Shown here in pieces: positions 2,166 to 62,427 of a DNA stretch of 64,000 nucleotides. Every line of letters begins with the position of its first letter. The stretch's first letter is position 1. The stretch lies in NCBI GenBank assembly GCA_964579205.1, contig CAZOFH010000002.1:21108-85107 (forward strand). The letters are read 5' to 3'. The DNA comes from an uncultured Christensenella sp. (lineage in GTDB: Bacteria; Bacillota; Clostridia; Christensenellales; UBA1242). Below the pieces are notes generated by a model, which searched no databases, was not told where the DNA came from, and saw only the letters and a program-made list of their open reading frames with translations. The position numbers were made by a program, and so were the translations under genes.

Positions 2166-2191
2166 GTGCCAAATTATCGAGGAGGGCTGTA

Positions 2192-3092: not shown

Positions 3093-3115
3093 TTTTTGTA
3101 GAATAAATTTTGGTA

Positions 3116-3144: not shown

Positions 3145-3172
3145 TTGGAGCAATTTCATCGAGGAGACTATT

Positions 3173-12906: not shown

Positions 12907-13104
12907 TGCGTGGCTGTCGATTTTTTTGTGTGGGGTAATTATACCACGCGGAGACAAAATTTTGCCGCACAACAATTACTCAAAAAATTTATCAATAAAA
13001 ATCAAAAAAATTCCGAAAAAATACTCAAAAAATAGCAAAAAAATGGTCAAAAATTCGTTGTAAAAAAAATATTGCAAAAAATAAAAAAAATTGTTTAAAT
13101 TTAG

Positions 13105-15658: not shown

Positions 15659-15775
15659 AAATTAAATAACAAAAATCAAAAAATTGGGCAGTTGCATAAA
15701 TATTTTTATGTCTGCTCATTTTTATTTTTTTGAGGATGATTTGTGATAGGGGAATGAGTGTATTTTTACAAAATT

Positions 15776-41800: not shown

Positions 41801-44800
41801 GCAGTTGCGTAACGTAACCGATAGGTCGACTATCAAGCGTATACCTATTACGGTGGCTGACGGTGAGAGCGTGTATTATCAACTATACACCGCGGACGAT
41901 GTGGCGAGTATTGGGTCTACCGATGCGGGTTTGACCAAGAATTATTACCTGATGAACACTATCGATATGAGCGCGTATATTAATAAGCAACTCAACAAAG
42001 ATAGTAGTTGGGAATGGACTCCTATCGGGAGCCTAAGCAAGCCATTCAGTGGTACAGTGCAATCAATGGTTTACGGCGGCGAAAGCCCTGCACAGAGTAT
42101 AGTGGGCTGGTCGCTGTCGAGGAATTTTGACAGCATCGCCTCGGGTAGTACTACCGACTATCGAAACTACGGTATTTGGGGGGTGGTGACTGGTGAAATC
42201 AAGAATATCAATATTTATATCAACAATTACACCGTTAGCCAAGGCGTCTTTGTGGCGTCTGGTACTACCGCTCTCAACAACTACAATTACGGTCTAGTCG
42301 TCGGAAGGTTGGGCACTCGCCAAATTACTGTCGAGGGTACCGAAGATACTATTACGCAGTATGGTCGCCTCACAAATGTGACTGTGTACTGCTCAAATAT
42401 GACATACATCTATGCGCGCGCAGGCAACAATCAAAATACGCTAGTCAGCGCAAATCTCGGTGCTGTGGGTATGCTGGACGCTGGTACGACGGCTGATAGC
42501 ATCAATGTCAGCATCAATTCGGCTAGCATCTCTAGTGACGATCTAATCATCAACTTTGGTGGAATTGTCGGCAAAAACTACGGTATAGTCGGCGGTTCGG
42601 CACAAATCAACAATTATCGCAATTCAGCCTCAGTGACTGCCTCGGTATCGGTGACATACAATACGCCGAAAGCTACGCAGTCGACCTTGGGTGGGGCGAT
42701 AGGTCTCAACTTTGGTGAGGCAAGGCATATTTCGGCACAAGGCAGCCTGTCTAGCGACTCGCAAATCGCAATTCTCGGCGGCGTAGTGGGTAGAAACTAC
42801 TACAATGCAGAATATGAGATAGTCGATGCCGAGGGCAATACGATGCAGAGTGCTGCGCTGATAAGCAATGTATTGAGCGCGGTGCGCATCAGCACTACCG
42901 CTGCAGGAACGATAGTCGGTGGTGTAGTAGGTAGCAGTGTGGGCGGTGAGATAAGTTTTGCTTATTACGATATCTACACAGTACTCATCAACGGCACAAA
43001 TAGCAGTCTCGGGCTATCAGGCTCAGGCTATACTGGTGGTATTGCTGGTACGATAGAGAATACCGACATTTCGTATGTAATCGTGCAGTCGTACTACATT
43101 GATAGTGATGTCGCTAATATCTCGAATGCTCGGGATAGCAATGGTGCTATCGGTGGTTTGGTAGGGCGTGCAAAGGGCGGTAGCATCTCACACAGTTTCG
43201 TAAACGCTGGGTTAAAAGCCTCTACTGGTGTAGTCGGTGGTATTTTGGGTGAGGCGCAGAGTGGAGCAGATAGCGCTACTCAGATTAGCGATGTGTTCGC
43301 TCGCGGGTATTTGACCGCGCCTAGTGCAAATTCGGGCTACGCATTCGTCGGCAGATACGCAAGTTTTGTGTCGATAAAGGATGCATATGCGGATTTTGAG
43401 AATGACTCACTAGACGCCTTTTATCAAAAGAACGGCACGGTAGAGAATATTTACCTCGTCCGCAGTACCGAAACTACTACTGATACCACCAATGCAGAAA
43501 TCAAGATTATCAACCGTACTGAATTGACAGGCAAATCGGTCGCCGAACTACTATTCGAGGTAGACTCTTGGGCAATAGATAGCAGTGCTACTACTCCTAT
43601 AAACGGCGGCTTGCCATACTTGCTCTACGACGGTGCGCCATTCGTGCGTATGGTGCCGAATAATGTAGAGGTGTCGGCTAGGACTTTTGAGACTATGCAC
43701 GAGGGCAAAATTAACACCGTCCTCAATGTCGGCACAGATGACAAAAAATTGATTTTGGCATATCAAGAGGACGCTATATATACGTTAAGCGATTTGTTTG
43801 ACCTCAGCACCGACCTTAGCCTTGGCGCGGATAGCATCAGCATCAATTATTCGCTAAACAACACTAGCGTCATCCAACTGTTGACTACAGCCAATTTTGT
43901 GACTACTCAGTTTAAAGTCATCGGCACAGGTACGGTGTGTATGCGGATTAGCAGTAGTCAAAACGCGAGAGCGTACGATGTGGTGCAGATTTGCGTAATA
44001 GAGAGTTTTGATAGCGTGGACATTCTGGATGAAAACCGTGATAGCATCATCGAGAATAGTGCTTTGGGCAATTATACCACTCTCAAAATCAAGCACAACG
44101 GCAGTACCCAAGTATTCGCAGAATACACCTTTGACGGGCAAAAAATCAGTAATTTCTCTGGTGGTATAAAATTTGTCACCGGACTAAGATATGATGCTAG
44201 CCTTGATGCACTAGAGACGGTGAGAGATACCGAAGGTGCTATCCTCACGAACTACAATATCAGCATTCAGTCGTGGCAAGCGGGCGCATACGGCAGTCTC
44301 GACGTACTATATCATTATGTAGCCAACAATGACAAGATCGCTCTCGTGAGTGTCGGGAATGACAGGACTACTCGATTTGTGACCATTATTATCCCTTATA
44401 TAGATGTGCAATTTTATGCGCTAGATGCGGACAAAAACATCACCGCGCTCAATAGTTATCGCTACGAAATCAGCGAATTCGGCGAGTTGAGTTTTGAGAC
44501 GCAGATTTATTACGGCGTAAGTGATATCGTAATGGGCGTGGGTGACGGCACCCAAATCCAGTCGGGCGAAAAACTGCAGGCTGGCGTGACAATATTCAAT
44601 GACGCTTATGACGACAGTATGACGATAGATGACCTGCTGTATTATCAACTATATCGTGTGCTCGACGGCGGCGATACCGAAGAATTGGTCGCGTACTTTG
44701 ACCCAACTCTACCAGCCGCTCAGAGCGTGCTGGGGAGTAATGACATCTATGTCAACTTTACCGATATTACCTTTGTCGCCGAGACCAACGCAGTGATAAT

Positions 44801-47800
44801 CGACTACAATGTAGAATTGTCACAGACTATGCGCAAGAATTTGACCAAAAATCAAGTCTACCGCATAGTTATCGGTGCGATTGACGACAATGGCGAAAAA
44901 ATCGCCAAGACAGTTTCGCTGCAATGGACATTCACTCCTCAACAAGTGACGCGTATGGATATCGCGCATTACAGTGATGCAATCAATAGCGGCGCAAAAC
45001 TGACTCAAGCAGGCGATACCCCTACCAACACAATAGTAGCGGGTGAGTACGGCTTGCTCAAGATTAGCATTTCGCCAGACTATGCCAACTTTGAGCGCAT
45101 CACCCTCACTAGTAGCGAGGTAAACGGCAGCCCTATGGCATTTGACCAAAGAGTGCTAGAGGTGACTACCGACCGAACGACTGGTGAGGAGGTGTACAAT
45201 TACCTCACTTGGCAACAGGGCGTCGGGGTAATCACAAATGGTATTTCGCTACACCGCGTGAGCCTAGCGAATGGCGCTTTTGACGGTAATTTCTATGTGC
45301 GTACTATCTGCTTGCGCACCTTGCCCACAGGTACGCAATTTACCGTCACTGTGACTATTACGCAGAATGGGCAGCAGTATAGTTTCGCGAGGACACTCAC
45401 CGTGTACAAGACAGATACTCTGTCGCTAGAGGGGGAGAATTATAGCGACATTTTGGGGCATTATATCGTGGCAGAGGGTACGGGGTATGTATCGCCTAAT
45501 ACTTGGGTGCAAAACCAAAACCCTCTGACTGTCCAAATCGGTGCCGCATATTATGATACCGAAATCTCAGTCGATTCTGCTAGTGCTGCTCTCGGTGCTA
45601 GCGTGGTACGAGAAAACGGCAAATACTACCTCTACACAGGTAGGGTGAGCAAGAATAACCTCATCACCGTGACCTTGACCGCAAAGCAAAATATAGGCGG
45701 CTTTACATACCGCGCGACTAGGTCGATAACCTACGAGGTAGTGGACTTTTATATCCGCACATTGCGTGCTGACGAAGTAATGCCTACGACCAAGAGATAC
45801 GCGTTTATCGACGAAAAGTACTATGACTTTGATTTGTTCATCGGCATAGATGCGACGAATATAAACAAACTCACCGTCATCACTTTTGACCCGAGCAATG
45901 TGGCTACGTGTCAAAAAGTGCTCGACACTATCAATAGCCTAAATGGTATGGGGGTCACCCCGTACAATGGTTGGCTACGTAGGGTAGTAGAGTCGGACGG
46001 GAGGATTGCGTTCGCAGCGATTCAGCCGAAACTCGTTGCTGATGACCAATGGATAGACAACAATTATCAATTCCTCACCACCGCCACTGGGTACAAAGTA
46101 TTGAGTAGTGGCATCAGCACGGGCAACATTTTGCGCTACGAAATGCTATTCTATTACGACGCAGGTTCGTTTACCTTGACTGATAGCCAGTCAGACGCGA
46201 CATTCGGAATGTCGACCGACAATATAAACCTAGAATTTTATCAGGTGACTAGCCAAGAGCATCCTCAGCCTATCAGGACGCTAAACCAGTTTATGTCGAT
46301 GCAGGCTGATATCGACTACATTCTGCTCAACGACCTGACTATCACCGATGCGTGGACTCCGCTCAACGTGGCTGTCAAGAGTTTCAATGGTAATGGCTAC
46401 AGTATCCATTTTGACGCGACTAGCATTACGCCTGCTGGCGAGGACGCAAACTACGGTTTGTTTGGTACCATTGATGCAAAATCCGTCATCAAGAATGTGC
46501 GGATTGTACTAGGGGCTGATGGCTTGGCAATCAATGACGGTGAGGCGGCTCTAGGCAAACTAAACTTTGGTATCCTCGCAGGTACCAACAACGGTACCGT
46601 ATACAACTGTGAGGTATACGGGCTCAATAACAAGCAGGCAGCGATAGCGATGTCAGCCAACCCTGCCTCGACCTCTGTGAGTCACAATATCGCGGGTCTA
46701 GTCGCTATCAATACTGGCGGCATCAGTAATAGCCGTGTGCAGTACACCAGCCTAAGGGCGGGGGGTAATGTGGCAGGACTGGTAGTAGACAATAGCGGTA
46801 CTATCGCAGGTTCATTCTACTCGGGCGGTACTATTACCAACCTATCAGAGACAGAGACTTTCGCTACCTCGGGACTGGTAATCAACAATGCTTATGACGG
46901 CAAAATCACCTCTAGTTATGTAGGTGGTACATACACCGTCACCGACGCAGAGGGTAATACCTCTCTAGACACTCGCACCGCGGTAGCCAATACTAGAGAC
47001 GCGACTATTCAGTCAGGTGTGACCTCGGCAGGCTTTGTATACACAAACTACGGTAGCATCGCAGACTGCTATTCGGCAGTAGAGATATTCTCGACCAAGA
47101 TGAGCGGTTTTGTATTCACAAACTACTCATCAGGTACGATAGCGCGCTGCTATTCGACTAGCGACCTATCAGGTACGGGCTCAATCATCGCTAGTTACCC
47201 ATTCATTGGTGCGAATAGCGAGAATGCTAGCACAAACAACAACCTAAACAAAACCAACGGTATCACGAATTGTTATTACTACGACTCTGGCTTTGCGAAT
47301 ACTAGACTAGAGGAGGCGGCTCCGCTCGGCATCGACGACTTTTGCGGCGCGAATGGCAGCACAGTCTTTGCAGACTATATCTTCTCACGCGATGGCGAAG
47401 CGGGCTCAGAATTTACAGGAGTATGGGTGTTCGCCCAAAAAGACCACTTGTACTTTACTCCACAACGCTTTGTGTCTACTCTGCAAGTCGCCGCAGATGC
47501 AAGTATTGACAAATTGTATACCAACTTTGGACCGAAATTGGTCAGTGCGAGCCTCATCGCAACTCCAAGAATGCAACTCGTCAAATCTGAGGAAAATGCC
47601 GCTGGCGAAATCGTACACACATATGCCAACAAGTACACATCGGTGTTTACTTTGGAGGAAAATGGCGACTACTTTACCGACTATAGTTATGACCCAATCG
47701 TAGTCAGCAATATGGAGCAATTCAATAGCGCTTTTGACGCTGAGAGCGACAATCTAGTAGTCAAGGGCGAGGGCAGTGGTGCTATCATCTTGAGTAATAT

Positions 47801-50800
47801 TAGGATAGTCAGCGACCTCAACCAAAGCAACCTCGCTAATGGCGAAACGCTGCATTCACCTAGCGCAAACTATGCGGGCATTCTGGCTGGTAATGGCTTT
47901 GAATTCGGCGACATCTCGCTGGCTGTCAATAGCCAAGATATCGAGGCATACGGGCTCATCGGTCGCTTGAGTCGTGTGACTGCTACGGTAGACGACACGA
48001 CTAACTACATCGGTACTATCAAAAATTACTCTGCGACAGTATCGAATATCGCCTGCTCGACCGTGACGTATGTCGGAGGCTTGGTCGGCTGGGTAGACAG
48101 TGCCAACCTCTACGATGTCGAGGTAACCAATCAATATGGTAGAGTAGTGGGCAACAATGTCGTCGGTGGTATCGCAGGATACGTCACTGGTACTAGTAGG
48201 ATACACACTGCTTTTGCCAATGTCGGTGTCACAGCCAACTACCGTGCGAATACCGAAAAAATCTACAATCACGACCTCGTGAGAGTATACGGGCTAGAGA
48301 CTGCGCGCAAGGTGAATATCGACCTCGTAGGCTACGCCGGTGGGCTATTCGGAATAATCGACCTCACGCCATTTGACCAGACGAATCCTAGTTCGTCGGA
48401 CCCATTTGAGGCGCGCGTGTACAACATTAGCAACAATTCAAATGCTAGTGTCGTCGGCAAAATTGCTGGTGGTCTCATCGGTGGTGTCGGCGAATATTCA
48501 GTGATTTATAAGGCAAAAAAGACTGTTATCACAGGAGCACTGGTCAAGGGGTACGTCTTTGCCGGTGGTATCGCTGGACAAAATAACGGCTTTATCAAAT
48601 ATGCATCAGTAGAATACACTAGCGACATTCAGGCGATAGTAGATGCTGCGCGCACTGGTGAAACAGTGGCAGATGCGTACCTAGACTACTTTAATGCGGG
48701 CACTTCACCTCTAGCGATAGGTGGTATCGTTGGGCTGAATATCGGCTCAAACAACATAAACTGGCCGGGTGGTACTATCCAACTCAGTAGTACCAAGATA
48801 GCCATTCGTGATAGCACCGCTGGCAATGCTGGTGGTATCGCGGGGGCGGTCTATGGCGGAGACTTGAGGGCGTGTCTGGCTACTGGCGGCATAGTGGCGA
48901 GCAATCGTGCTTATGTCGGCGGCATCGTCGGATACCTGTCAGACTTTAGCGCGGACAATGCGATTCTCATCGGTATGGACAATCCATTCGGCGAGGCAAA
49001 GACTTGTGGCACCACGCTAGACTACCTAGTAGGTATGAATAACTACCTCGCGTCGGATTATAATTACTATTATACCCTATATACCAACGATACCAAGGGT
49101 ATCAATGGCGCTATCGGTGGAATAGTGGGCTATGTGCTAGACCGTTCACTCATATACACTACACACACAGTAGCCAATGGCTCGGATGACCCATACGCGT
49201 ACCTTACGCATCCGTCAAACTACTTTGTGTCGCAGATTAGCAACCGTGTGCTCTCTACCGCGCTCACTACACCGCTCAATAGTGGCACTGGCTACTTTGA
49301 CTTGTACCAAGAGGATGACTTGGGCGTGATGACCTTTAGCCGAGCAGTGGGCAAATATGGCTCAGATACCACGCTAAACCTCGCTCAAGGTAAGACACGC
49401 GGCTATATGATGCAAAATCGCGCTACCATCTTTGACGGGTGGGACGAATACAGCCTAGACACTTCGTCGGGCACCCCTAGCATAGTAGAAAAGGATTTGC
49501 CTGACATTATCGAGATAAGTACTATCCAAGACCTCAGCATTATGTACTGGCACCCTGACAAAGACTATGTGCTAGTCGATGACATCGATTTTCAAGACCA
49601 TACCGCTCCTGCAGGGGAAAAGAGGATTTTGGCACCATTCTATGCTATCGGCTCTGAGAGTTCGCCATTTACAGGTAGTTTTACGAGTCGTGCAAAAGCA
49701 GACGGCTCTTTGCCAGTCATCAAGAATGTGTATATTATCAACTCTGACGCGTCGAGCATAGGCTTCTTTGGGGCGATTAGTAATGCGCACATCTCGAATA
49801 TCATTATTCAAGACATCCATTACAACACCGCGCTAAACAAAAATGTAAAAGCGTGGGTCGGCGGTCTCGCTGGTGTCGTAACTAATAGTACGGTGCAGAA
49901 TGTGTCTATCCGCATTACTGATACGGCTAACTCAGGGATTTTTACCAACGCAAATGTCGCTGGTGGAATGTTTGGGCTAGTCAGGTCGCTCAATGACGGC
50001 GAAACGCTGATTGAGGCGTGCTATGTAGAGAATAACCTAATCTTGGGTGACAATGTCTACTCAGCGGCACTGCAGACTGGTGCTGTGGCAGCATACTACG
50101 GTGGATTTGCTGGTCAAATCACAGGCGATGTGACCATTTCGGGCGCAATGGCTGTGGGCGATATGACGGTCAATTACACCGATATGACTACTACCACAAT
50201 GACTGCGCAAAACGCTAGTGAAATCGAGCATATCGTAGGAGGCTTTGCTGGGCAGATTTCGGGCGAAGATGTCACCGAATCGGCTTGTGTCAGCGCAGTA
50301 GATGTCATTCTAAATAATGTCCTGTCTCATACACGGGCAGGAGGCTTTGCGGGAGTCATTGGTGGCACAAAACTTACCAAAGTCGACTCTCATAGTAACC
50401 TAAATATCAACTTTGCCAACCTAAACGATACCAAGATTTTGTATGTCGGCGGTCTAGTCGGCGAGCAGCGCAATGCTAGCACGCTCACAGGGTTTGTATC
50501 GGCAGGCGATATCCGCCTAAACGGCACCTATGGTATTAATACACTCAATACGACCGCTACGCACCACTTTGTGGCAGGTATTGTAGGACACTTGGGCGAC
50601 TCTGCACAGGTATCTAGCGGATATTCGGTAGCGTCGATTATCAATAATACTATGTTTGCCAACCTCGATATGGGCTTTGCTTCGGGCGACATTAGCGGGG
50701 TGAGCAACACTGGCTCTGTCAAGGTGGATCGCTCATACGCACTCACCGCTGGTGATAGAGCGAATGTCGGCACTACTAGTAGTGCTGTCCAAGGCGGGGG

Positions 50801-53489
50801 TGGACTGGATATCGGCACGGGCTTGTTTGTCCGCGACGACGCACAACTAGGTTATTATCGTATCAAGAATACCGCTACGCAAAACGAGTACTTTAATACC
50901 GCTTATGCAGCGCTATATGCTATCAATACGGGTTCGGGCAAAACTGCTCCTATCCGCATTGCCAATAGCACCGACTTTGCTACCAATATGGCATCGGCTA
51001 GTGATGAGTACCAGTATTATCTACAGATTACCGACATCACTTTGGGCAATACCAACAAATTGTACGGTACTGGCACGCAGGTGAGCGAATTCATCGGTTC
51101 GTACAATGGTGGCGGCAGCAAACTCATTCTGCCTGCACACTTTGACCTAGCACACGTGAGTACGCCTAATTGCGGACTATTCGGCACGGTGACTTCGACC
51201 GCTAGCCAGCCTAGTATGATTTTGGGCGTGGTGATGACCGATGTGATGATTTATGCAAATCTGATGAGTACGGTGGAGAACTTCGGTATCATCGCGGGCG
51301 AAACTACCGCCAATACGATTATGGCTAATTGCTACATCTCGGGCGAACTCAATCTCAATGTCGGGGGTACAACCGCTATAGGTGGGCTGGTCGGTAGTAG
51401 CGGCGGAATATTCATCGGCTGCGCAACTGATATTGATGCCAACCTCGACGGTAGTAGCGCATATCGCTATGGTGCGATTTATGGCGTGGCGAACACTCAA
51501 AATTCCCACATTACGCTATTTGATGTGCAATCTGCTGGTAAAATCACAAACTCAGGTAGTCAGGCGATAGTAGCTGGTATAATAGCGGACAATTCCGCCT
51601 CGACACTATATGCAAAGAATTGCTACACAGCGACCGAGATTGCTAGTGCATCGACTACTACCGCAAATGTAGTATACGAATTGGGTACCAAGGCTCACAA
51701 TGCAGCGGGCATCTGGTACGACCCTACCAATTCGCTCGACAAGACAAAGGACGCCGTGTGGGAAATATACGACTATTCGACCAACCGCGGTCAAAACTTC
51801 GTCGGGTCGAATTATGTCGCGCGTAATGATAGGAATTATGGCTTGCCAATCCTTAAGTGGCTCAACGACTCAAATCTCGCTACCGAGACTGGGGTAGGTA
51901 CCGCTACCAATCCGTATATTATCGACACCGCCGCGCAATTCGGCTGGATGCTCGAGAATAATACGAGCAGCAGGTACTACATCCTCAATAGCGATATTGA
52001 CTATCGTCTAGTCGCTGGTATCTCGGGGTATTCGGCGGGCGCATTCGCAGGCACGCTCAATGGTAACTATCATTATATCCGCAATATCAATAGCACACTG
52101 TTTACCACTATCGGTGGCAGCGTGACCAAACTCGGCTTTGACAATGTGTCAGTCGCTGCTGATACCGCGATTTTGGCGAATTCTACCACGAGTGCGTCTA
52201 CCGTGAGCCAAATTTACGCTGCAGCAACTACAGGCAAAGTCATTGGCTCAGGGCTGATAAGTAATAGTCTGTCGAATGGTGCAACTTTTGGCGAAGACGC
52301 TACGAATTGCTTTGCTACCGTTATCACTGACGAGGTGTACAACGGGCTAGATACTACGATTTGGGCATACAATGGTCAAGGTTATACTTTGAGTGGCTTT
52401 ATTAGCGACTGCAGGACTTTGGCAAAACCTATAGGCACGATGACAGTCGGCGCGCTCTCGAGTGGCTCGAGGACGCTCACCGCGCAAAATGCTCAAGACC
52501 TATACAATGCGCTATTCTACGCGACCCATTACTCAGGTCGGTACAAAATCAACTGTACCTTCACCACCCTAGACCTAGACGGGTACGCGCTGAATGTGCC
52601 TAATTCGGTCAGCGAAATTACTGGGCTAACGACTATCCAAGACGGATATTTGAGTGCCAACGCTATGGCAAAAATCAAGAGTACTAGCCTCAGCATCCAA
52701 AACTGTGGCTTGGCTAGCGACACTACCAATCCGCTCCTAGGTGATAGTAATGCCTCAGCCATTACAGTTTCGCTTTCAAATTGTCGAGTAATAGCGAATA
52801 GGGCAGGAGGCTTGCTCTACACTAGCATCACTGCGCCATTCACTCTCAATATCACCAATACGCGAGTTTTCCTCAATAGTCAAAATGTTGACCTCGTGGC
52901 TGGCTCTCGTGCCAATGCTACTGGCACCGTCACTATCAATGTGACCAATCTCGGCATTTACGGCGGCAAAATCCGCTCTGTGATAAATACGATTGATGGC
53001 GGCACGACCGATATGACTCTCAGCAATGTGTCGGGCACTGGCAGTATAGAGAATGTGGTCTCTACCAACGCAGGCACCGTGACTATCGACCTAAACACAG
53101 GTGTGTCGCTCGACTCAAATACTAATAGTATCATCGGCACAAATAGCGACACCGCGAATATCAACGTAAATAGTGTCCTGACGGCGACTGGGCTAGAGAA
53201 TTTTGCATTCGTGCAGAATAGCAGCGGGGTGGTCAACCTAACTATTTCTGCTGCCACTAGTCTCAGCGGTACCACAATCAGCGGTGTGGTAGGTACGTAT
53301 TCATGTCAAAACGCTACTACGCCCACGATCACAGTTACCTTGAATGCGAATTATGCAATCACCGCGACGACAAGCAACGCAATCATCGGCGGCTGTGCTA
53401 ATGGCGTAACATTTGACGAAGAGACGAACCTAACCTTTACACCGAATACTTATCAACTGACGGTCAACGGCGCAGCCTTTGGCGCGTAA
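38868..53489 (+). CDS. giant (4873 aa) surface lipoprotein: Ig-like (Big_2-type) modules plus multiple GLUG-motif blocks plus beta-solenoid-like C-terminus
   Basis: Uninterrupted 14,622-nt ORF. Signal peptide plus lipobox LCFAGC. Big_2-like IEWSSDSRYVVVTPNADGTRATITGV. GLUG-type repeats such as IAGLVAINTGGISNSRV, VAGLVVDNSGTIAGSFYSGG, VGGLVGWVDSANLYDVEV, IGGIVGLNIGSNN and VGGLVGEQRNASTLTGFVSAG. T/N/S-rich C-terminal repeats. No LPXTG or C-terminal TM seen. Confidence 0.9.
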   Translation: MAMSKLRYLWCGVLILLLVCGLCFAGCGNNIDNLSIKLSASGLVESEKEGEYDLTLVKTTGQDDLSWSAVVSAEVLGISGSMSPKIEWSSDSRYVVVTPNADGTRATITGVTSTSAPTVVTAYSIENRNAEARINVTNIVTPQRITGSKYAAGELGIPLGTPFSLLPGDLFQFYPSDATVPVYEYKIDGVTVSSDEEFTLQNLTDGYATLSAAPLDKSGYTTEQLAALSYTIQSVRIYNPLTDQNTTLTMAGQEGDVSEITLIKNAKNKNKAILTVNAPSSIEYSITSENNIVFDEETNKRGVLSVTFDAKTKQFTLVGVEALDEFCDVNIHFTIAGVKNSIVLTKTFAVRIVDYPTAISVNGVAGSTDVHLRVFDQYQSGVKGTPLRLNISPDSMLFTNISIAVDTTTQAENLTLMSSLLIDNKPFTGSLDNIKSGTTMYLTNSKGYGEFDILVYAADTRGTEDEVVRRITISLEQSVTSMTVDSAVLDNATSHLILEVDEYGSGAVINTRDLTVAITPQTASFDTVTVASEDEDIVDVSITDYTDCVITVRAKKIGQTRITLLAESGVRLNISVRVVARYKTMSISLDPNMSSVMYCADLTVTKPVEGVSDVETLSRAYIAKTGSGDGVYLMSAFYPQAAITSEMVSSIEFISSDNSIASLYNTNSSFYRNVLTTERAGVVSFDIKVKYYRLVGSSLVLQEEVMNSAFTIQVFERVASLSVNESSVELLAEVQSFGVGGSKPASVYDTANNSKTLKVTVNPSNSNITANDAIWSVVGNTSKITLSTTRGSETVVSVSPLAGNSLRVTATIVVSLTDLNGVTFTQEVKIVANKIQQITDVYINNYENSLKNNSLYFELFKDDGYTLDVSVAPTTATNKKLEYIIYDAELLPAWTAGQDVIRVYAGNNKYQYYNVLPRTAGDSAYATQYQCKTADLIYNEADGTYSIKPKRAGYAFVFIIPQDVANQKVDEITEGLTPQLRNVTDRSTIKRIPITVADGESVYYQLYTADDVASIGSTDAGLTKNYYLMNTIDMSAYINKQLNKDSSWEWTPIGSLSKPFSGTVQSMVYGGESPAQSIVGWSLSRNFDSIASGSTTDYRNYGIWGVVTGEIKNINIYINNYTVSQGVFVASGTTALNNYNYGLVVGRLGTRQITVEGTEDTITQYGRLTNVTVYCSNMTYIYARAGNNQNTLVSANLGAVGMLDAGTTADSINVSINSASISSDDLIINFGGIVGKNYGIVGGSAQINNYRNSASVTASVSVTYNTPKATQSTLGGAIGLNFGEARHISAQGSLSSDSQIAILGGVVGRNYYNAEYEIVDAEGNTMQSAALISNVLSAVRISTTAAGTIVGGVVGSSVGGEISFAYYDIYTVLINGTNSSLGLSGSGYTGGIAGTIENTDISYVIVQSYYIDSDVANISNARDSNGAIGGLVGRAKGGSISHSFVNAGLKASTGVVGGILGEAQSGADSATQISDVFARGYLTAPSANSGYAFVGRYASFVSIKDAYADFENDSLDAFYQKNGTVENIYLVRSTETTTDTTNAEIKIINRTELTGKSVAELLFEVDSWAIDSSATTPINGGLPYLLYDGAPFVRMVPNNVEVSARTFETMHEGKINTVLNVGTDDKKLILAYQEDAIYTLSDLFDLSTDLSLGADSISINYSLNNTSVIQLLTTANFVTTQFKVIGTGTVCMRISSSQNARAYDVVQICVIESFDSVDILDENRDSIIENSALGNYTTLKIKHNGSTQVFAEYTFDGQKISNFSGGIKFVTGLRYDASLDALETVRDTEGAILTNYNISIQSWQAGAYGSLDVLYHYVANNDKIALVSVGNDRTTRFVTIIIPYIDVQFYALDADKNITALNSYRYEISEFGELSFETQIYYGVSDIVMGVGDGTQIQSGEKLQAGVTIFNDAYDDSMTIDDLLYYQLYRVLDGGDTEELVAYFDPTLPAAQSVLGSNDIYVNFTDITFVAETNAVIIDYNVELSQTMRKNLTKNQVYRIVIGAIDDNGEKIAKTVSLQWTFTPQQVTRMDIAHYSDAINSGAKLTQAGDTPTNTIVAGEYGLLKISISPDYANFERITLTSSEVNGSPMAFDQRVLEVTTDRTTGEEVYNYLTWQQGVGVITNGISLHRVSLANGAFDGNFYVRTICLRTLPTGTQFTVTVTITQNGQQYSFARTLTVYKTDTLSLEGENYSDILGHYIVAEGTGYVSPNTWVQNQNPLTVQIGAAYYDTEISVDSASAALGASVVRENGKYYLYTGRVSKNNLITVTLTAKQNIGGFTYRATRSITYEVVDFYIRTLRADEVMPTTKRYAFIDEKYYDFDLFIGIDATNINKLTVITFDPSNVATCQKVLDTINSLNGMGVTPYNGWLRRVVESDGRIAFAAIQPKLVADDQWIDNNYQFLTTATGYKVLSSGISTGNILRYEMLFYYDAGSFTLTDSQSDATFGMSTDNINLEFYQVTSQEHPQPIRTLNQFMSMQADIDYILLNDLTITDAWTPLNVAVKSFNGNGYSIHFDATSITPAGEDANYGLFGTIDAKSVIKNVRIVLGADGLAINDGEAALGKLNFGILAGTNNGTVYNCEVYGLNNKQAAIAMSANPASTSVSHNIAGLVAINTGGISNSRVQYTSLRAGGNVAGLVVDNSGTIAGSFYSGGTITNLSETETFATSGLVINNAYDGKITSSYVGGTYTVTDAEGNTSLDTRTAVANTRDATIQSGVTSAGFVYTNYGSIADCYSAVEIFSTKMSGFVFTNYSSGTIARCYSTSDLSGTGSIIASYPFIGANSENASTNNNLNKTNGITNCYYYDSGFANTRLEEAAPLGIDDFCGANGSTVFADYIFSRDGEAGSEFTGVWVFAQKDHLYFTPQRFVSTLQVAADASIDKLYTNFGPKLVSASLIATPRMQLVKSEENAAGEIVHTYANKYTSVFTLEENGDYFTDYSYDPIVVSNMEQFNSAFDAESDNLVVKGEGSGAIILSNIRIVSDLNQSNLANGETLHSPSANYAGILAGNGFEFGDISLAVNSQDIEAYGLIGRLSRVTATVDDTTNYIGTIKNYSATVSNIACSTVTYVGGLVGWVDSANLYDVEVTNQYGRVVGNNVVGGIAGYVTGTSRIHTAFANVGVTANYRANTEKIYNHDLVRVYGLETARKVNIDLVGYAGGLFGIIDLTPFDQTNPSSSDPFEARVYNISNNSNASVVGKIAGGLIGGVGEYSVIYKAKKTVITGALVKGYVFAGGIAGQNNGFIKYASVEYTSDIQAIVDAARTGETVADAYLDYFNAGTSPLAIGGIVGLNIGSNNINWPGGTIQLSSTKIAIRDSTAGNAGGIAGAVYGGDLRACLATGGIVASNRAYVGGIVGYLSDFSADNAILIGMDNPFGEAKTCGTTLDYLVGMNNYLASDYNYYYTLYTNDTKGINGAIGGIVGYVLDRSLIYTTHTVANGSDDPYAYLTHPSNYFVSQISNRVLSTALTTPLNSGTGYFDLYQEDDLGVMTFSRAVGKYGSDTTLNLAQGKTRGYMMQNRATIFDGWDEYSLDTSSGTPSIVEKDLPDIIEISTIQDLSIMYWHPDKDYVLVDDIDFQDHTAPAGEKRILAPFYAIGSESSPFTGSFTSRAKADGSLPVIKNVYIINSDASSIGFFGAISNAHISNIIIQDIHYNTALNKNVKAWVGGLAGVVTNSTVQNVSIRITDTANSGIFTNANVAGGMFGLVRSLNDGETLIEACYVENNLILGDNVYSAALQTGAVAAYYGGFAGQITGDVTISGAMAVGDMTVNYTDMTTTTMTAQNASEIEHIVGGFAGQISGEDVTESACVSAVDVILNNVLSHTRAGGFAGVIGGTKLTKVDSHSNLNINFANLNDTKILYVGGLVGEQRNASTLTGFVSAGDIRLNGTYGINTLNTTATHHFVAGIVGHLGDSAQVSSGYSVASIINNTMFANLDMGFASGDISGVSNTGSVKVDRSYALTAGDRANVGTTSSAVQGGGGLDIGTGLFVRDDAQLGYYRIKNTATQNEYFNTAYAALYAINTGSGKTAPIRIANSTDFATNMASASDEYQYYLQITDITLGNTNKLYGTGTQVSEFIGSYNGGGSKLILPAHFDLAHVSTPNCGLFGTVTSTASQPSMILGVVMTDVMIYANLMSTVENFGIIAGETTANTIMANCYISGELNLNVGGTTAIGGLVGSSGGIFIGCATDIDANLDGSSAYRYGAIYGVANTQNSHITLFDVQSAGKITNSGSQAIVAGIIADNSASTLYAKNCYTATEIASASTTTANVVYELGTKAHNAAGIWYDPTNSLDKTKDAVWEIYDYSTNRGQNFVGSNYVARNDRNYGLPILKWLNDSNLATETGVGTATNPYIIDTAAQFGWMLENNTSSRYYILNSDIDYRLVAGISGYSAGAFAGTLNGNYHYIRNINSTLFTTIGGSVTKLGFDNVSVAADTAILANSTTSASTVSQIYAAATTGKVIGSGLISNSLSNGATFGEDATNCFATVITDEVYNGLDTTIWAYNGQGYTLSGFISDCRTLAKPIGTMTVGALSSGSRTLTAQNAQDLYNALFYATHYSGRYKINCTFTTLDLDGYALNVPNSVSEITGLTTIQDGYLSANAMAKIKSTSLSIQNCGLASDTTNPLLGDSNASAITVSLSNCRVIANRAGGLLYTSITAPFTLNITNTRVFLNSQNVDLVAGSRANATGTVTINVTNLGIYGGKIRSVINTIDGGTTDMTLSNVSGTGSIENVVSTNAGTVTIDLNTGVSLDSNTNSIIGTNSDTANINVNSVLTATGLENFAFVQNSSGVVNLTISAATSLSGTTISGVVGTYSCQNATTPTITVTLNANYAITATTSNAIIGGCANGVTFDEETNLTFTPNTYQLTVNGAAFGA

Positions 53490-53577: not shown

Positions 53578-53602
53578 AAAAGCGACCTCGCGGTCGCTTT
53601 TC
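53578..53602 (+). terminator. intrinsic terminator after giant gene (AGCGACC/GGTCGCT stem)
   Basis: AAAAGCGACC-TCGC-GGTCGCTTTT. Confidence 0.65.
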
Positions 53603-53628
53603 GGCGTTGCGGTAAATTTAGCAACAAC

Positions 53629-53681
53629 TCATTCAGAGGCAGGCATAGCCTGCCGTGGAATCTGTGAGGCATCGCCGAACC
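53629..53681 (+). repeat. intergenic repeat, copy A
   Basis: TCATTCAGAG-[GCAGGC ATA GCCTGC]-CGTGGAATCTGTGAG-N8-GAACC. Confidence 0.85.
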
Positions 53682-53763
53682 TAATACCGAAACAACTTTT
53701 ACATAGTCCAAGAGGAGGGCATCCCACGACCTACAAAATAAACGCAATAATTATCAAAACTAC

Positions 53764-53792
53764 TTGCAAAACGGGGGCAAATACGGTATAAT
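53764..53792 (+). promoter_or_regulatory. sigma-A promoter (TTGCAA-17-TATAAT) of GlyRS gene
   Basis: TTGCAA 53764-53769, TATAAT 53787-53792. Short leader, SD TAGGAGAG. Confidence 0.65.
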
Positions 53793-53832
53793 AGACACAT
53801 AAAACTTTTTCGGCAATGATTAGGAGAGAATT

Positions 53833-55279: not shown

Positions 55280-55306
55280 AAAGCGACCTCAATCGGTCGC
55301 TTTTTC
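55280..55306 (+). terminator. intrinsic terminator after glyQS (AGCGACC/GGTCGCT stem)
   Basis: AAAGCGACC-TCAATC-GGTCGCTTTTT. Confidence 0.7.
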
Positions 55307-55451
55307 TCTTTGCATCTTGTTGTAATTCCTAAATGCACCGCCTCCCAAAAAGAGAACGGTCATCCTGAGTGTGGCATCCTCGCGCCCTCTTGCGTGAGGG
55401 TCTCATCTGCCTTGGCAACGGCAGTGCAGACAGAGACAAATAAAATCAACA

Positions 55452-55478
55452 AAGCGACCTTTTCGGGGCGCTTTTTTC
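55452..55478 (+). terminator. second terminator-like hairpin with related stem
   Basis: AAAGCGACC-TTTTC-GGGGCGCTTTTTT (one mismatch), about 150 nt after the first. Confidence 0.5.
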
Positions 55479-55484: not shown

Positions 55485-55536
55485 GGTTCGCTAACTCTCA
55501 CAGATTCCACGGACACCGTTGGCGCCCTCTGAATGG
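55485..55536 (-). repeat. intergenic repeat, copy B (inverted)
   Basis: Minus strand: CATTCAGAG-[GGCGCC AACG GTGTCC]-GTGGAATCTGTGAG-N6-GAACC. The hairpin pairs only on this strand, through two G-U pairs. Confidence 0.85.
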
Positions 55537-55639
55537 CAGCGGAGTGGCGGTGCCACAATTAATTTTATTAAGGGGTTCAGGGGGTCGCAATGTGTCTTGC
55601 CGTTGTGTGTGCCTCTGCACACAAAACTCCTCCCTCTTG

Positions 55640-55695
55640 TCATCCAGAGCAATCGTAAGGTTGCGTGGGAGCTGTGAGGCACGTAGTTCCGAACC
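55640..55695 (+). repeat. intergenic repeat, copy E (degenerate)
   Basis: TCATCCAGAG-[CAATC GTAA GGTTG]-CGTGGGAGCTGTGAG-N12-GAACC. Confidence 0.7.
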
Positions 55696-55869
55696 AAAAA
55701 ACGCAACAACTCGCATACTGCTCCAAAAGAATAGCCCCGTCCGAGCCTCCTAGACTATTTTTTTACCCCCAAAAAACTACCGAAAACCTTGTGGATAACT
55801 TTTTACATAAAAATTATCCAAAAACCTCTAAAAGAGTCGAAAATTGTGGAAAAATATGGTCAAAAACAC

Positions 55870-55900
55870 TTGACATTTTCGTCGGGGGGGGGGGTATACT
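55870..55900 (+). promoter_or_regulatory. sigma-A-like promoter TTGACA-19-TATACT with G11 tract in the spacer
   Basis: TTGACA 55870-55875, TATACT 55895-55900. Homopolymer G11 at 55884-55894. Lies 48 nt upstream of ATG 55948. Confidence 0.6.
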
Positions 55901-55947: not shown

Positions 55948-57474
55948 ATGATAAAACACATTATTGTACAGGCAGGCGGTCAGGGCTCCCGTCTCAAAAA
56001 ATTGACACGAAACAAGCCCAAAGCGCTGGTGTCAATCGACAATTTGCCTATTATTTTTCACCTGTTTAGGCAGTTCCCTGATGCGCACTTTGTGATAATA
56101 GGTGATTACAAGTGTGATGTGTTGCGCAAGTATCTCGACGCGTTTGCCGAGGTGGATTATGAGATAGTCGAGGCAAAGGACGGATGCAAAGGGACTTGTT
56201 CAGGGCTCAGCGATAGCCTAAAAATTATCCCTGCCGCTACGCCTTTTATGCTGATTTGGTGTGATTTGATTTTGGATAAAAATCTAGATTTCGCCTCTCT
56301 CGATTTGACCCGCAATTACTTGGGCTTGTCACAGGATTTTGAATGTCGCTGGATGTATCGAGAAGGGGTATTTAGTCAATATCCGTCTCGTGAGTACGGG
56401 GTGGCAGGGATGTTTTTGTTTCACGACAAAAATATTCTCAGCGCAGTGCCTAGCAGTGGCGAATTTGTGCAGTGGCTCAGTACGCAGAATATCGATTTTG
56501 AGACTATGGGCATACACGGGGCACAGGAGTACGGGCTATATGACTTTGTCAACTCGCTGGACAAGCCAAAGTGCCGCCCTTTCAATCAGATGATTTTTGA
56601 CGGCGACAAAGTGACCAAGGTTGGTATCGATGACCAAGGTCGGTCGCTGGCGAGACGGGAGCGGAATTGGTACAGTGTGGTGCAGTCGCTTGAGTTTGAG
56701 TCGCTCCCCAAGATTTATAGCCTCGAGCCACTCATCATGGAGCGGATAGATGGCAAGCCTATTTATGAATACGGCACACTCTCGACCGAGCAGAAAAAGG
56801 ACATTTTACGCAAAATTGTAGCCTGCCTAGACAGGTTGCACGGCATCGCGTCCGTGCCTGCTGATCGTGAGAGTTGCGAGTCAAACTATATCCAAAAGAC
56901 TCTCGACCGCCTGCAAAAAGTGCGTAAAATGATACCTTTCGCTGACCGTGAATATATCACTATCAATGGCAAGTCGTGCAAAAACTTCTTTTTCTGTATT
57001 GACGAGGTCGCAGAGGCTATGCGTCAGTACTATCCGAGCGAATTTCACTTTATCCACGGCGACAGCACATTTTCTAATATATTATTAAATAAGGATAATA
57101 CCCCTATTTTGATTGACCCGAGGGGGTATTTTGGTAGTACCGAATTGTACGGCGATGTAGCATATGATTGGGCGAAAGTCTACTACTCACTGGCGACGAA
57201 TTATGACGCGTTTAATCTCAAAAATTTTGACTTGCAGATTAATGCTGATGATGTCGAGCTGACCATTCCTGAGAACGGGTGGGGCGAGTTGCGTGAGTTT
57301 TACCTCGATTTGATAAAGGACGACTGTACGGTCGAGCAAATCAATCTGATTTTGGCGCTGATTTGGCTGTCGCTCACCACTTACGCGTGGGATGATTATG
57401 ATTCGATTTGTGGCGCCTTTTATGAGGGGCTGCTGGTGCTCAATGAGTGCGAATTTATGAGGGAGAAAAATTAA
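55948..57474 (+). CDS. bifunctional sugar-phosphate nucleotidyltransferase (N-terminal) / APH-ChoK-fold sugar kinase (C-terminal)
   Basis: N-terminal VQAGGQGSRLKKLTRNKPKALV (NTP-transferase signature). C-terminal FIHGDSTFSNILL...ILIDPRGYFG...YGDVAYDWAK (Brenner/APH motifs). Confidence 0.8.
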   Translation: MIKHIIVQAGGQGSRLKKLTRNKPKALVSIDNLPIIFHLFRQFPDAHFVIIGDYKCDVLRKYLDAFAEVDYEIVEAKDGCKGTCSGLSDSLKIIPAATPFMLIWCDLILDKNLDFASLDLTRNYLGLSQDFECRWMYREGVFSQYPSREYGVAGMFLFHDKNILSAVPSSGEFVQWLSTQNIDFETMGIHGAQEYGLYDFVNSLDKPKCRPFNQMIFDGDKVTKVGIDDQGRSLARRERNWYSVVQSLEFESLPKIYSLEPLIMERIDGKPIYEYGTLSTEQKKDILRKIVACLDRLHGIASVPADRESCESNYIQKTLDRLQKVRKMIPFADREYITINGKSCKNFFFCIDEVAEAMRQYYPSEFHFIHGDSTFSNILLNKDNTPILIDPRGYFGSTELYGDVAYDWAKVYYSLATNYDAFNLKNFDLQINADDVELTIPENGWGELREFYLDLIKDDCTVEQINLILALIWLSLTTYAWDDYDSICGAFYEGLLVLNECEFMREKN

Positions 57475-57475
57475 T

Positions 57476-58066
57476 ATGGTAGAATACTTTGAGAAAAATA
57501 TGTCCGTGCTAAACGACTCTATTGGGTCGCTGAGTGACGAATTGTGGGAAACTGTGGTCGCCGAGTGCGTGCGTACTATCAAAAACGGTGGCAAAGTCAT
57601 CGCTAGCGGCTTGGGCAAAAATGTCCCAATTTGCGAAAAGTTCGTCGGCACGCTAAACTCTTTTGGCATCCCTGCGGCTTTTTTGCACTCAAACACCGCT
57701 ATTCACGGCGATTTGGGTGTGGTAGGGGACAAGGATTTTGTCTTTGTGCTCTCAAAAAGTGGTAATACCCAAGAGTCAGTGCTTTTGACTGCGTTGCTAC
57801 TTGATTACGGAGTGAATACTTGGCTACTCAGTTGCAACGGGGTTTCGAGACTTACCGATATGCTAAAAAAGAAAGTTATCCTAAAACTTGCCCACGAGGG
57901 CGACTTGTGGGATATCGCTCCAAACAACTCTACGACAGTGTTTTTGATATTCTTGCAAGGTCTCGCTGTGCGTCTGTGCCAAGAGTTGGGCGTCACTTTG
58001 CAACAATTCCAGCGTAATCACCCAGGTGGTAGTATTGGCGAAAAATTGCGTGGCAAAAAAGCGTAG
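57476..58066 (+). CDS. SIS-domain sugar-phosphate isomerase (KdsD/GutQ-like core, no CBS pair)
   Basis: GGKVIASGLGKNVPICEKFVGTLNSFGIPAAFLHSNTAIHGDLGVV...VLSKSGNTQES. ATG lies 1 nt after the upstream stop. Confidence 0.8.
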   Translation: MVEYFEKNMSVLNDSIGSLSDELWETVVAECVRTIKNGGKVIASGLGKNVPICEKFVGTLNSFGIPAAFLHSNTAIHGDLGVVGDKDFVFVLSKSGNTQESVLLTALLLDYGVNTWLLSCNGVSRLTDMLKKKVILKLAHEGDLWDIAPNNSTTVFLIFLQGLAVRLCQELGVTLQQFQRNHPGGSIGEKLRGKKA

Positions 58067-58100
58067 GTGCATAGTGGCGAATATTACTTTATCATCAGAT

Positions 58101-58469
58101 ATGCAAAAAACGTGGATTTTTGACCTTGACGGCACTTTGGTCGAACACAACGGCTACCTAAAATATGGCGAGGATGTGCTGCTGGACGGGGTAAAGGAGT
58201 TTTTTGACACTATTCCTGAGGGCGATATGATAGTTATTCTCAGTGCCCGTTCCTCGGCGTACGGCGCTCAAACTGTTGAGTTTTTGCGCAAAAATGGTAT
58301 CAGATACAATCTTATTATTTTTGACGCGCCCAAAGGGGAGCGGATTTTGGTGAACGACAAAAAGCCTGACGGGCTAAAATGTGCTTATGCAATCAATGTC
58401 GATAGGAACGATTTTGGTAATGTGTGGAGCGAGTTGGGCGATAAAAGAGGGGAGAGCGAGAACAAATGA
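58101..58469 (+). CDS. HAD-superfamily phosphatase
   Basis: Motif I WIFDLDGTLV, small cap, motif III-like VNDKKPDG. Start uncertain (ATG 58101 or GTG 58073; ORF-track 58026 overlaps the SIS gene). Confidence 0.7.
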   Translation: MQKTWIFDLDGTLVEHNGYLKYGEDVLLDGVKEFFDTIPEGDMIVILSARSSAYGAQTVEFLRKNGIRYNLIIFDAPKGERILVNDKKPDGLKCAYAINVDRNDFGNVWSELGDKRGESENK

Positions 58470-59404
58470 GTTTTTGGAGAAAAGTCAAGCACGGTCTATT
58501 CATCGGCGCCAGTTTCGCTGGTGCTTTTTTGTCGTTTCCGTTGCTTTTACGCAGACTTCGTAAGCAAAAAAGGGACGATGAGGTGATTATCGCGCTGTTT
58601 CCTCATTTCGGCGATGTGGTTTATGGGATGCTGTACGCCGAGCAATATCACAAGGAAACAGGCACAAAAGTCAGCGTCTATTGTGGTGACAATGTCGCTC
58701 ATATGATGAAAAAGTATCCCTTTGTCGATAGGGTCATCACATATCGCAAAAACTCGCTCGAGCAATTTAGAGTGATTTTGTTTTCGCCTTTGCGCTATGC
58801 TACTATAAAAAAGGAAAATTACGACGGCATTATCGCCACCGTCCCACCCAAGCACCATTTTAGGGGACGTGCGGTCGTCGAGGTTTACCGTGACTTAATT
58901 TATAAGGTGCAGGAGGACAAAATGGCTCTCTTTATCCCCGATACCGTGCCGATTACTTCGATACCTGATTTTGAGAGTAAAAAAGATAGGATAATCGTCA
59001 TCAATCCGTACTCGTTTTCGCACGGCTACAATAGGGAGTTGTTTGAGAAATTGGTAGTTGCCTTGCGAGGTAAAGGCTACATAGTCTATACCAACGCTGT
59101 GGCAAAATTCGGTCAACAGCCTATCAAGGGTTCTCTGCCTCTCGACTGTTCTGTCGAGGAATTGTATGCCATTGTCAACAAAATCCCGCTGTTTATTTCG
59201 GTGCGTTCGGGGATTTTGGATGTAATGGTGAGCGGACAAGGCAATCTCTTTGCCCTCCACTTCAAACGTAATCATTGGATGCGCACTTATTTCCCGTTGC
59301 GTGATTTGCGTCCTAATAATGTTTATGACGCTGTTTGGTTCAAAAAAGCCGACACCCCGCGCGTCATTCATAGAATAGAAACCGTGTTGCAAGAAATAAA
59401 ATAA
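58466..59404 (+). CDS. putative glycosyltransferase, GT9 (heptosyltransferase)-like, with N-terminal anchor
   Basis: ATGA start/stop overlap with the HAD gene. Layout VIIALFPHFGDVVYGMLYAEQY...VDRVITY and IIVINPYSFS...LFEKLVVALRGKGYIVYTN...FISVRSGILDV resembles the GT9 two-Rossmann pattern. This is a by-eye assignment only. Confidence 0.5.
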   Translation: MSFWRKVKHGLFIGASFAGAFLSFPLLLRRLRKQKRDDEVIIALFPHFGDVVYGMLYAEQYHKETGTKVSVYCGDNVAHMMKKYPFVDRVITYRKNSLEQFRVILFSPLRYATIKKENYDGIIATVPPKHHFRGRAVVEVYRDLIYKVQEDKMALFIPDTVPITSIPDFESKKDRIIVINPYSFSHGYNRELFEKLVVALRGKGYIVYTNAVAKFGQQPIKGSLPLDCSVEELYAIVNKIPLFISVRSGILDVMVSGQGNLFALHFKRNHWMRTYFPLRDLRPNNVYDAVWFKKADTPRVIHRIETVLQEIK

Positions 59405-62125: not shown

Positions 62126-62150
62126 AAAAAGACCTTGCTAGGTCTTTTCC
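62126..62150 (+). terminator. intrinsic terminator after nrdR
   Basis: AAGACC-TTGCTA-GGTCTT followed by TTCCTTTC. Confidence 0.55.
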
Positions 62151-62156
62151 TTTCTG

Positions 62157-62207
62157 TCATTCAGAGACGGACGCTGTCCGCCGTGGAATCCGTGAGCGGA
62201 GCGAACC
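62157..62207 (+). repeat. intergenic repeat, copy C
   Basis: TCATTCAGAG-A[CGGAC GCT GTCCG]C-CGTGGAATCCGTGAG-N6-GAACC. Confidence 0.85.
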
Positions 62208-62271
62208 CCAAACCGCAAAAGCTCGCACATAGCAAAAAGAGGCAGGGAATGCCTTTATTGTTTTAATTTTG

Positions 62272-62327
62272 GGTTCAGAACTTGCATTCTTCACAGATTC
62301 CACGCAACCTGTGGTTGCTCTGAATGA
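62272..62327 (-). repeat. intergenic repeat, copy D (inverted)
   Basis: Minus strand: TCATTCAGAG-[CAACC ACA GGTTG]-CGTGGAATCTGTGAA-N13-GAACC. Confidence 0.85.
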
Positions 62328-62427
62328 TAAGAGGAAGAAATTTGCCTTAATATGGTGTGGGCGCAGTAGCACACACAACGGCAAAAGGTGGGTGGGGTAG
62401 CCACTCTCAAAAAAAAGAAAAGTACGG

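Follow-up and report, generated by a model that had tools for sequence, protein, structure and literature searches.

The spacer in front of glyS in this uncultured Clostridia bacterium carries a short hairpin unit that recurs nearby, each time with much the same flanks and another stem. This raises the question of whether the unit is a true repeat, whether it acts as RNA or as DNA, and whether it belongs to a described family. The window, i.e. the whole stretch of DNA that was analysed (64,000 nucleotides), is core chromosome; its Pfam matches include ClpX, Era, RecO, GyrB, GyrA, DnaA, SepF, LspA, GlyRS, NrdR, and SpoVG.

A modular intergenic repeat with five copies

On the element strand, the core unit of the five copies is TCATTCAGAG-(5-6 bp stem, 3-4 nt loop)-CGTGGAATCTGTGAG-N6-13-GAACC. 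Taken block by block, the core of ~55 nt is composed of UCAUUCAGAG, the stem and loop, CGUGGAAUCUGUGAG, a linker of 6-13 nt, and GAACC. A covariance model (R1) was built from the five copies, and its scores are given with the features below.

Copy A core, 53629..53681, + strand: TCATTCAGAG, GCAGGC-ATA-GCCTGC, CGTGGAATCTGTGAG, 8-nt linker, GAACC; 76.1 bits
Copy B core, 55485..55536, - strand: stem GGCGCC-AAC-GGTGTC with two G.U pairs; 71.2 bits
Copy E core, 55640..55695, + strand: variant CATCC...GGGAGC, stem CAATC-GTAA-GGTTG with one U.G pair; 64.9 bits
Copy C core, 62157..62207, + strand: stem (A)CGGAC-GCT-GTCCG(C); 67.4 bits
Copy D core, 62272..62327, - strand: stem CAACC-ACA-GGTTG, end of the 3' flank GTGAA; 65.2 bits

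The pattern CATTCAGAG-N10-22-GTGGAATC has four exact matches in the window, compared with none in 100 dinucleotide-preserving shuffles, and a fuzzy search of the 64 kb gained copy E and no other. R1 scored the five copies at 65-76 bits, and the next best place in the 64 kb reached 11 bits with filters off. All five copies are in the last 10.5 kb of the window, where they fall within 2.1 kb of spacer sequence (the intergenic total of the window is 9.3 kb), and gene callers put no ORF in the spacers that bear them. Reading of the sequence and the fuzzy search agreed on the coordinates and strands of the five copies, all of which a sequence-only reading had already listed. The five stems of that reading (GCAGGC/GCCTGC, GGCGCC/GGTGTC, CGGAC/GTCCG, CAACC/GGTTG, and CAATC/GGTTG) are also correct, as is its description of an interspersed, modular intergenic repeat that occurs singly or in inverted pairs and is interleaved with other modules. 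Those modules are as follows.

T module, 53579..53600: hairpin AAAGCGACC-TCGC-GGTCGCTTT, terminator-like, 28 nt upstream of copy A
T module, 55280..55303: AAAGCGACC-TCAATC-GGTCGCTTT, after glyS, terminator predicted on both strands
T module with one mismatch, 55451..55474: AAAGCGACC-TTTTCG-GGGCGCTTT, 3' of copy B on B's strand, ~10 nt past GAACC
Candidate hairpin-less core relic, 55359..55385, + strand: GTCATCCTGAG TGTGGCATCC..., low confidence
Hairpin GTGGC-ACC-GCCAC, 55544..55556, - strand: 7 nt 5' of copy B
H module, 55597..55623, + strand: hairpin TTGCCGTTGTGTGTGC-CTCT-GCACACA followed by CT-rich CTCCTCCCTCTTG, 5' of copy E
H module, 62358..62384, - strand: 5' of copy D, followed by the CT-rich tract TTCTTCCTCTTA
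3' tail module of copy A, 53686..53707, + strand: ACCGAAACAACTTTTACATAGT
3' tail module of copy E, 55700..55721, + strand: AACGCAACAACTCGCATACTGC
3' tail module of copy C, 62212..62233, + strand: ACCGCAAAAGCTCGCACATAGC
Central hairpin of the C/D pair, 62238..62256: AGAGGCAGGGAATGCCTTT, terminator predicted on both strands

The AAGCGACC-loop-GGTCGCTT hairpins that had been picked out as shared terminators were found at 53580, 55281, and 55452 (the last with one mismatch), and the TGCCGTTGTGTGTGC module was found at 55598 (+) and 62383 (-). The tails of A, C, and E are related and can be aligned for ~40 nt past GAACC. B (-) and E (+) form a head-to-head pair with a 103-nt spacer, and C (+) and D (-) form a tail-to-tail pair with a 64-nt spacer. 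The copies fall into two sub-families: one (A, B, and C) is marked by a 6-bp stem with a 3-nt loop and by an inner C-G pair that does not vary, the other (D and E) by a 5-bp stem and by the H hairpin and CT-rich tract that its two copies share upstream.

The borders of the unit are fuzzy. No terminal inverted repeats were found at its ends (TCATTCAGAG or TTGCCG... against ...GAACC or the tail), and no target-site duplication is visible where similarity ends. With such borders, the unit seems to lack both features that define a MITE. It does not look like an intrinsic terminator either: the core hairpin is followed by CGTGGAATC and not by a U-run, and the terminator scan, which did detect the T modules and the central C/D hairpin, skipped the core hairpins.

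Two further observations concern sequences close to the cores. The stretch 55359-55410 (+) contains GTCATCCTGAG-TGTGGCATCC followed by a CCCTC/GAGGG hairpin and may be a degenerate core relic, which the covariance model did not detect. CT-rich tracts stand 5' of E (55624-55639, CUCCUCCCUCUU), D (62328-62345 on the minus strand, UUCUUCCUCUU), and C (62149-62156, UUUUCCUUUCU), and they resemble anti-Shine-Dalgarno sequence.

Almost invariant flanks around a stem that keeps its pairing alone

At the 30 flank positions, any two copies are identical at 26-29 (87-97%). The stems are identical at 0-7 of 12 positions (~27%), save for D and E, which agree at 9 of 10. Even so, each copy has a 5-6 bp stem at its centre that spans the whole variable segment, and shuffling of the stem copy by copy gave p values of 0.002, 0.005, 0.05, 0.001, and 0.04. 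When the copies were aligned in register, with D and E padded with N so that the stems line up, 95.8% of stem cells paired and both sides had changed in 6 of 10 pairs; none of 500 shuffles matched the observed pairing or covariation score. When the partners were slid by 1-3 columns, pairing fell to 25-52%. These covariation statistics rest on five sequences, and a DNA palindrome would score the same as an RNA helix. The claim that the stems differ in sequence yet always pair passed the covariation test (95.8%; 0/500 shuffles). The flanks are almost invariant and the stem keeps its pairing alone, so the conserved blocks are under constraint.

The fold may extend below the hairpin. AUUC in the 5' flank can form four base pairs with GAAU in the 3' flank, closing a 4x4 internal loop (AGAG/CGUG) below the 5-6 bp hairpin, and from its sequence this loop could stack as G-C, A.G, G.U, and A.G pairs. 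This pairing, proposed earlier for the family as a whole, holds in four copies; in copy E, one pair shows a compensatory change (C-G for U-A) and another is an A.G mismatch. Beyond the internal loop, the 3' side runs CUGUGAG, a variable linker, and GAACC. Between GTGAG and GAACC there is no second hairpin with a consistent fold, just 2-4 bp in differing registers. As an observation apart, the CT-rich tracts 5' of E, D, and C could form, with GGAA/GGGAG in the 3' flank, a helix that would take the place of AUUC/GAAU, and in copy E a U-to-C change is matched in both of these possible partners, the AUUC helix and the CUCCC tract.

Which strand folds, and whether as RNA, is harder to read from the stems. 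G-U pairs had been taken to point to an RNA-level structure. The pairs do exist (two in B and one in E), but the argument for RNA is weak because the opposite strand would gain a G.U at the outer A.C of copy C, and because G.T wobble is tolerated in single-stranded DNA hairpins too. The tally is three G.U pairs on the element strand versus one potential pair on the other, and the longest stems of the five copies are 6, 6, 5, 5, and 5 bp on the element strand versus 6, 3, 6, 5, and 2 bp on the opposite one. On this sequence evidence a single-strand fold on the CATTCAGAG strand, either RNA or DNA, is favoured. RNA folds of single copies had z scores of -0.55 to -1.9 against shuffles, i.e. their stability was not significantly higher.

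Genomic setting and distribution of the copies

Copy A lies between the T hairpin of a 4873-aa ORF and the glyS promoter TTGCAA-17-TATAAT (53764-53792). B and E share a 708-bp spacer after glyS, upstream of the promoter of the next operon (55870-55900). C and D lie past the stop codons of the convergent nrdR and Metallophos_2 genes, C downstream of nrdR and D downstream of the minus-strand Metallophos_2 gene, so that each is co-oriented with its own upstream gene, with a bidirectional predicted terminator between them. The copies are outside 5' leaders, as the promoters of glyS and of the next gene lie downstream of A and E. Copy B is antisense to both of its neighbours. A promoter-like site, TTGCGA-17-TAAAAT (55590-55562, minus strand), stands just upstream of its GTGGC hairpin, so that by consensus scan the layout on B's own strand is a promoter-like site, hairpin, core, and T hairpin. 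The consensus promoter scan gave no convincing promoter for A, C, D, or E. A predicted terminator follows C and D each, and a terminator-like hairpin follows B. The Pfam-scanned ORFs of the 64-kb window include no transposase, integrase, or RAYT gene, the last of which the earlier reading had suggested looking for.

Several features of the surroundings were noted in passing. The 4873-aa ORF (38868-53489, +) has no Pfam match at E up to 1e-4, and its stop is ~140 nt before copy A. The region before glyS (53764-53832) has no T-box leader by Rfam at E up to 10 and a promoter-like site ~40 nt before the start codon; a missing T-box leader is unusual for a Firmicutes-type glycyl-tRNA synthetase gene. 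In the promoter at 55870-55900, the spacer between TTGACA and TATACT is an 11-G run (55884-55894), and a 10-G run is found at the same place in relatives with 92% identical GlyRS (L027/L029, about 11640-11660). This promoter precedes an operon of NTP_transf_3/APH (LicC/LicA-like), SIS, and HAD genes (55948-59404), and to judge by its sequence the G-run looks like a slipped-strand, phase-variable promoter of a surface-decoration operon. Three tandem paralogous ORFs of ~300 aa (1098-1994, 2156-3034, and 3110-4063, all +), ~1040 nt apart, have no Pfam match. Spacers in the first 38 kb (12980-13098, 15598-15692, 25216-25315, and others) are AT-rich with periodic A-tracts of AAAAAATCAAAAA type, one of them just upstream of dnaA, and the three element-bearing spacers are GC-richer (0.45-0.46).

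Outside the window, the strict pattern had no match in 185,579 species genomes (one genome per species). A relaxed pattern that covers all five copies had 23 matches in the same genomes, compared with a rough estimate of ~30 by chance; since none of the 23 has the hairpin or CATTC, they are chance matches. Pattern scans of JGI metagenomes gave two matches, both chance, and those of viral contigs gave five, which were coding or chance. Blastn against plasmids and phages returned nothing relevant. No copy was found in the other organisms scanned, and therefore the element is not a broadly conserved family.

Around glyS, up to 21 kb were covered in five relatives with GlyRS identities of 83-92%, and none has a copy there; the accessory modules are absent at the glyS loci of three relatives and at two spoVG loci. 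The element is missing from the spoVG loci too; over all, the loci retrieved from seven relatives have no copy, and R1 had no match at two further glyS loci. After glyS there are 708 bp of spacer here, against 282 bp in the closest relative. Between these two spacers, the promoter-proximal end alone aligns convincingly, poly-G tract included, and the terminators differ in sequence; the rest does not align convincingly, so ~430 bp of modules are lineage-specific. The spacers of the relatives are too diverged to offer a clean empty site. By these comparisons, the copies were evidently added to terminator-to-promoter spacers and to convergent 3' regions after the split from the sequenced relatives. 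In a closer spoVG relative (L035, positions 1-180; 95% DNA identity over spoVG), different GC-rich hairpins stand downstream of Metallophos_2 in the place of D, and that relative has no recognisable copy of the element.

Short-read contigs of the same strain, four in all and drawn from three read sets, match the window at 100% identity. The three independent Logan contigs that reach upstream of glyS (L001, L032, and L042) all begin inside copy A, at 53639 or 53652, and one same-strain contig stops in the C/D region, at ~62361. Contig breaks in copy A fit, as indirect evidence, near-identical copies elsewhere in the genome, at which the assembly graph would branch. Logan contigs also stop at a tRNA gene ~670 bp beyond the window.

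Explanations and comparison with known families

The mosaic modules, the two orientations, the inverted pairs, the placement, and the absence from relatives favour a spreading element. Our leading explanation, to which we give a probability of roughly 0.5, is a lineage-restricted, non-autonomous mosaic repeat that acts in a REP/BIME- or BOX-like way and has a single-strand fold. Its core is joined variously with the T hairpin, with the H hairpin and CT-rich tract, and with the 3' tail. The element might be read single-stranded, as DNA during mobilisation or as read-through RNA, by a recogniser for which sequence would matter in the flanks and the internal loop, and shape alone in the stem. Its spread would rely on a factor encoded elsewhere in the genome, and any effect on the host would then be secondary, e.g. 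3'-end RNA structure or insulation between transcription units. Against this explanation, the stems are saturated with change and the flanks are not. Recently spread mobile repeats normally have common stems, and saturated stems beside frozen flanks rather suggest that purifying selection has long acted on a functional structured molecule. The small number of known copies (five) and the lack of a transposase, RAYT, or integrase gene in the 64 kb also count against a mobile repeat, as do ends at which neither terminal inverted repeats nor target-site duplications could be made out and the lack of a clean empty site in the relatives.

A functional structured molecule might be an RNA, and the copies might be a family of 3'-UTR elements or sibling small RNAs; we regard this main rival as possible and hold it tentatively. 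Protein binding, or a catalytic or tertiary core, would then fall to the invariant internal loop and the 3' strand, the stem would be purely structural, and the CT-rich tract found 5' of three copies (C, D, and E) could be an anti-Shine-Dalgarno seed or the alternative partner of GGAA/GGGAG. Conserved blocks with a covarying stem are the classic signature of such RNAs, although the element has no Rfam match, all ribozyme classes included, at E up to 10, and no conservation outside one strain lineage. The setting is likewise divided. On the one side, A, C, and D run in the direction of the gene before them and occupy its 3' region, a predicted terminator comes after each of C and D, and B is gene-like, with a minus-strand promoter-like site, hairpin, core, and terminator-like T module. 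On the other, A and E, for which no convincing promoter was found, are placed after a terminator and ahead of the next promoter, and B is antisense to both neighbours. The G.U pairs of B and E favour the element strand, an asymmetry of three pairs against one counter-example, and the U-to-C change in copy E is matched by an A-to-G change in the 3' flank, for the AUUC helix and for the CUCCC tract. The single-copy folds (z -0.55 to -1.9, not significant) count against an RNA. A bolder version, in which the core is a new small structured RNA whose AGAG/CGUG loop, CUGUGAG, and GAACC form a protein-binding or self-processing fold and which is mobile in 3' regions, seems to us unlikely.

The same flanks might instead be read in DNA, as an attC-like recombination site recognised as a folded single strand or as the site of a host DNA-binding protein. 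The conserved flanks would then be protein-binding boxes, and the variable palindrome a spacer or cruciform. A centre of changing sequence and slightly changing length, always paired and set between conserved boxes, follows attC-like logic, and the copies are intergenic, in both orientations, and in regions unlikely to be strongly transcribed. However, they have no attC R box (GTTRRRY / RYYYAAC) and bound no gene cassettes, the window contains no integrase or recombinase gene, and the two flanks do not mirror each other as inverted repeats. Most dimeric DNA-binding proteins need inverted-repeat flanks. We consider a DNA-level site quite improbable. Chance similarity or an assembly artefact, for which one could cite that the five known copies all come from one metagenome-derived sequence, is scarcely credible and effectively excluded by the zero pattern matches in shuffles, by copies above 64 bits against a best background of 11 bits, and by four contigs from three independent read sets (L001, L032, L033, and L042) that span B-E and part of A and are 100% identical.

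Other candidates were rejected. A T-box leader of glyS has no Rfam match, and copy A is found ahead of the glyS promoter. Small coding ORFs on either strand were dismissed since their frames are not conserved between D and E. A DGR hairpin after the giant gene would come with a reverse transcriptase and a template repeat, and neither was found by Pfam or by the repeat scan, respectively. LexA, NrdR, and parS boxes have consensus sequences unlike the element, and for group II intron or TnpB/IscB guide-RNA remnants there are no Rfam model matches and no partner genes.

The significance of the element depends on its nature. As a lineage-specific REP/BOX-like repeat alone it would be of modest value, as a record of this kind of element in an uncultured lineage of Clostridia. 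It would account for the breaks in this organism's short-read assemblies at element spacers, and it would show intergenic spacers growing by several hundred base pairs through modular insertions. Frozen flanks with a free but pairing stem are the signature expected for folded single-strand recognition, and if behind it lay an RNA fold not seen before, or a novel system of single-strand transposition or recombination, the element would be a compact, testable substrate.

Comparison with structured RNA families was made with Rfam 15, at the gathering threshold for the whole window and at E up to 10 for the last 11.5 kb and for two pieces of 200-280 nt. No family fits the element and no ribozyme class appears, even at E up to 10. 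Three tRNAs are the sole matches at gathering score in the window, and the matches at E up to 10 were chance matches far short of threshold (MicX, which had 26 bits where the cutoff is 75, and snoRNA and miRNA models). With the small self-cleaving ribozymes (hammerhead, twister, twister-sister, pistol, hatchet, and hairpin) the element shares ~30 conserved nucleotides in three blocks, variable stems, several copies per locus, both orientations, and no fixed gene association. Some small ribozyme classes have multiple scattered copies in Firmicutes genomes. The element differs from these ribozymes in having no known catalytic core and no cross-species conservation.

Integron attC sites have RYYYAAC ... 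GTTRRRY boxes and are recognised as a folded single strand, by shape over sequence. The element resembles them in its short conserved boxes around a centre that is variable in sequence and length and always paired. The R''/R' boxes are absent from the five copies and an integrase is absent from the Pfam-scanned ORFs of the window; unlike attC, the element has no cassette organisation and its stem is much shorter.

BOX of Streptococcus pneumoniae, RUP, SPRITE, ERIC, and Correia are modular intergenic repeats. Like these BOX-type repeats, the element has modules in varied order and number, is intergenic and non-coding, has a predicted RNA fold if transcribed, and occurs in a narrow lineage. A relationship in sequence would not be expected; the units of the element are shorter, and neither terminal inverted repeats nor target duplications could be seen in it. 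To our knowledge, a hypervariable stem that is always paired is not a BOX feature.

The closest parallel in organisation is with REP, BIME, and REPIN sequences (PMC3733652, PMC2817692, PMC3116915), which are likewise short, GC-rich, hairpin-forming intergenic repeats. They too occur as single copies or as head-to-head or tail-to-tail pairs, mostly after genes or between convergent genes, have sub-families marked by complementary stem changes, and are associated with other motifs in mosaics. REPs are defined by an unpaired GTAG or CGTC tetranucleotide tag adjoining the stem (PMC3733652), in a survey in which Firmicutes and Clostridia are not mentioned. The element has inverted dimers as REPs do (B/E head-to-head and C/D tail-to-tail), but the tag is absent, as the stems are flanked by AGAG (5') and CGTG (3'), or by CACG and CTCT on the other strand. 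The conserved part is the flank of 10 + 15 + 5 nt and not the stem: stems, nearly unrelated, agree at 0-7 of 12 positions (D/E 9 of 10) and flanks at 26-29 of 30. Within one genome, a REP family keeps the palindrome itself and has tens to hundreds of copies; the count of five here covers the 64-kb window plus ~1.8 kb of this genome. REP-type repeats flank, and are mobilised by, a RAYT gene (an IS200-like Y1 transposase), and the Pfam-scanned ORFs in the 64-kb window of this Clostridia MAG include no RAYT gene. With the tag absent and the palindrome not conserved, the element falls outside the REP super-families. The original assessment as BIME/REP-like in organisation but of no described family is thus borne out by the absence of an Rfam match and of the REP tags (PMC3733652). 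Since no described family matches, the element is a new family of a well-known kind, the small structured interspersed intergenic repeat.
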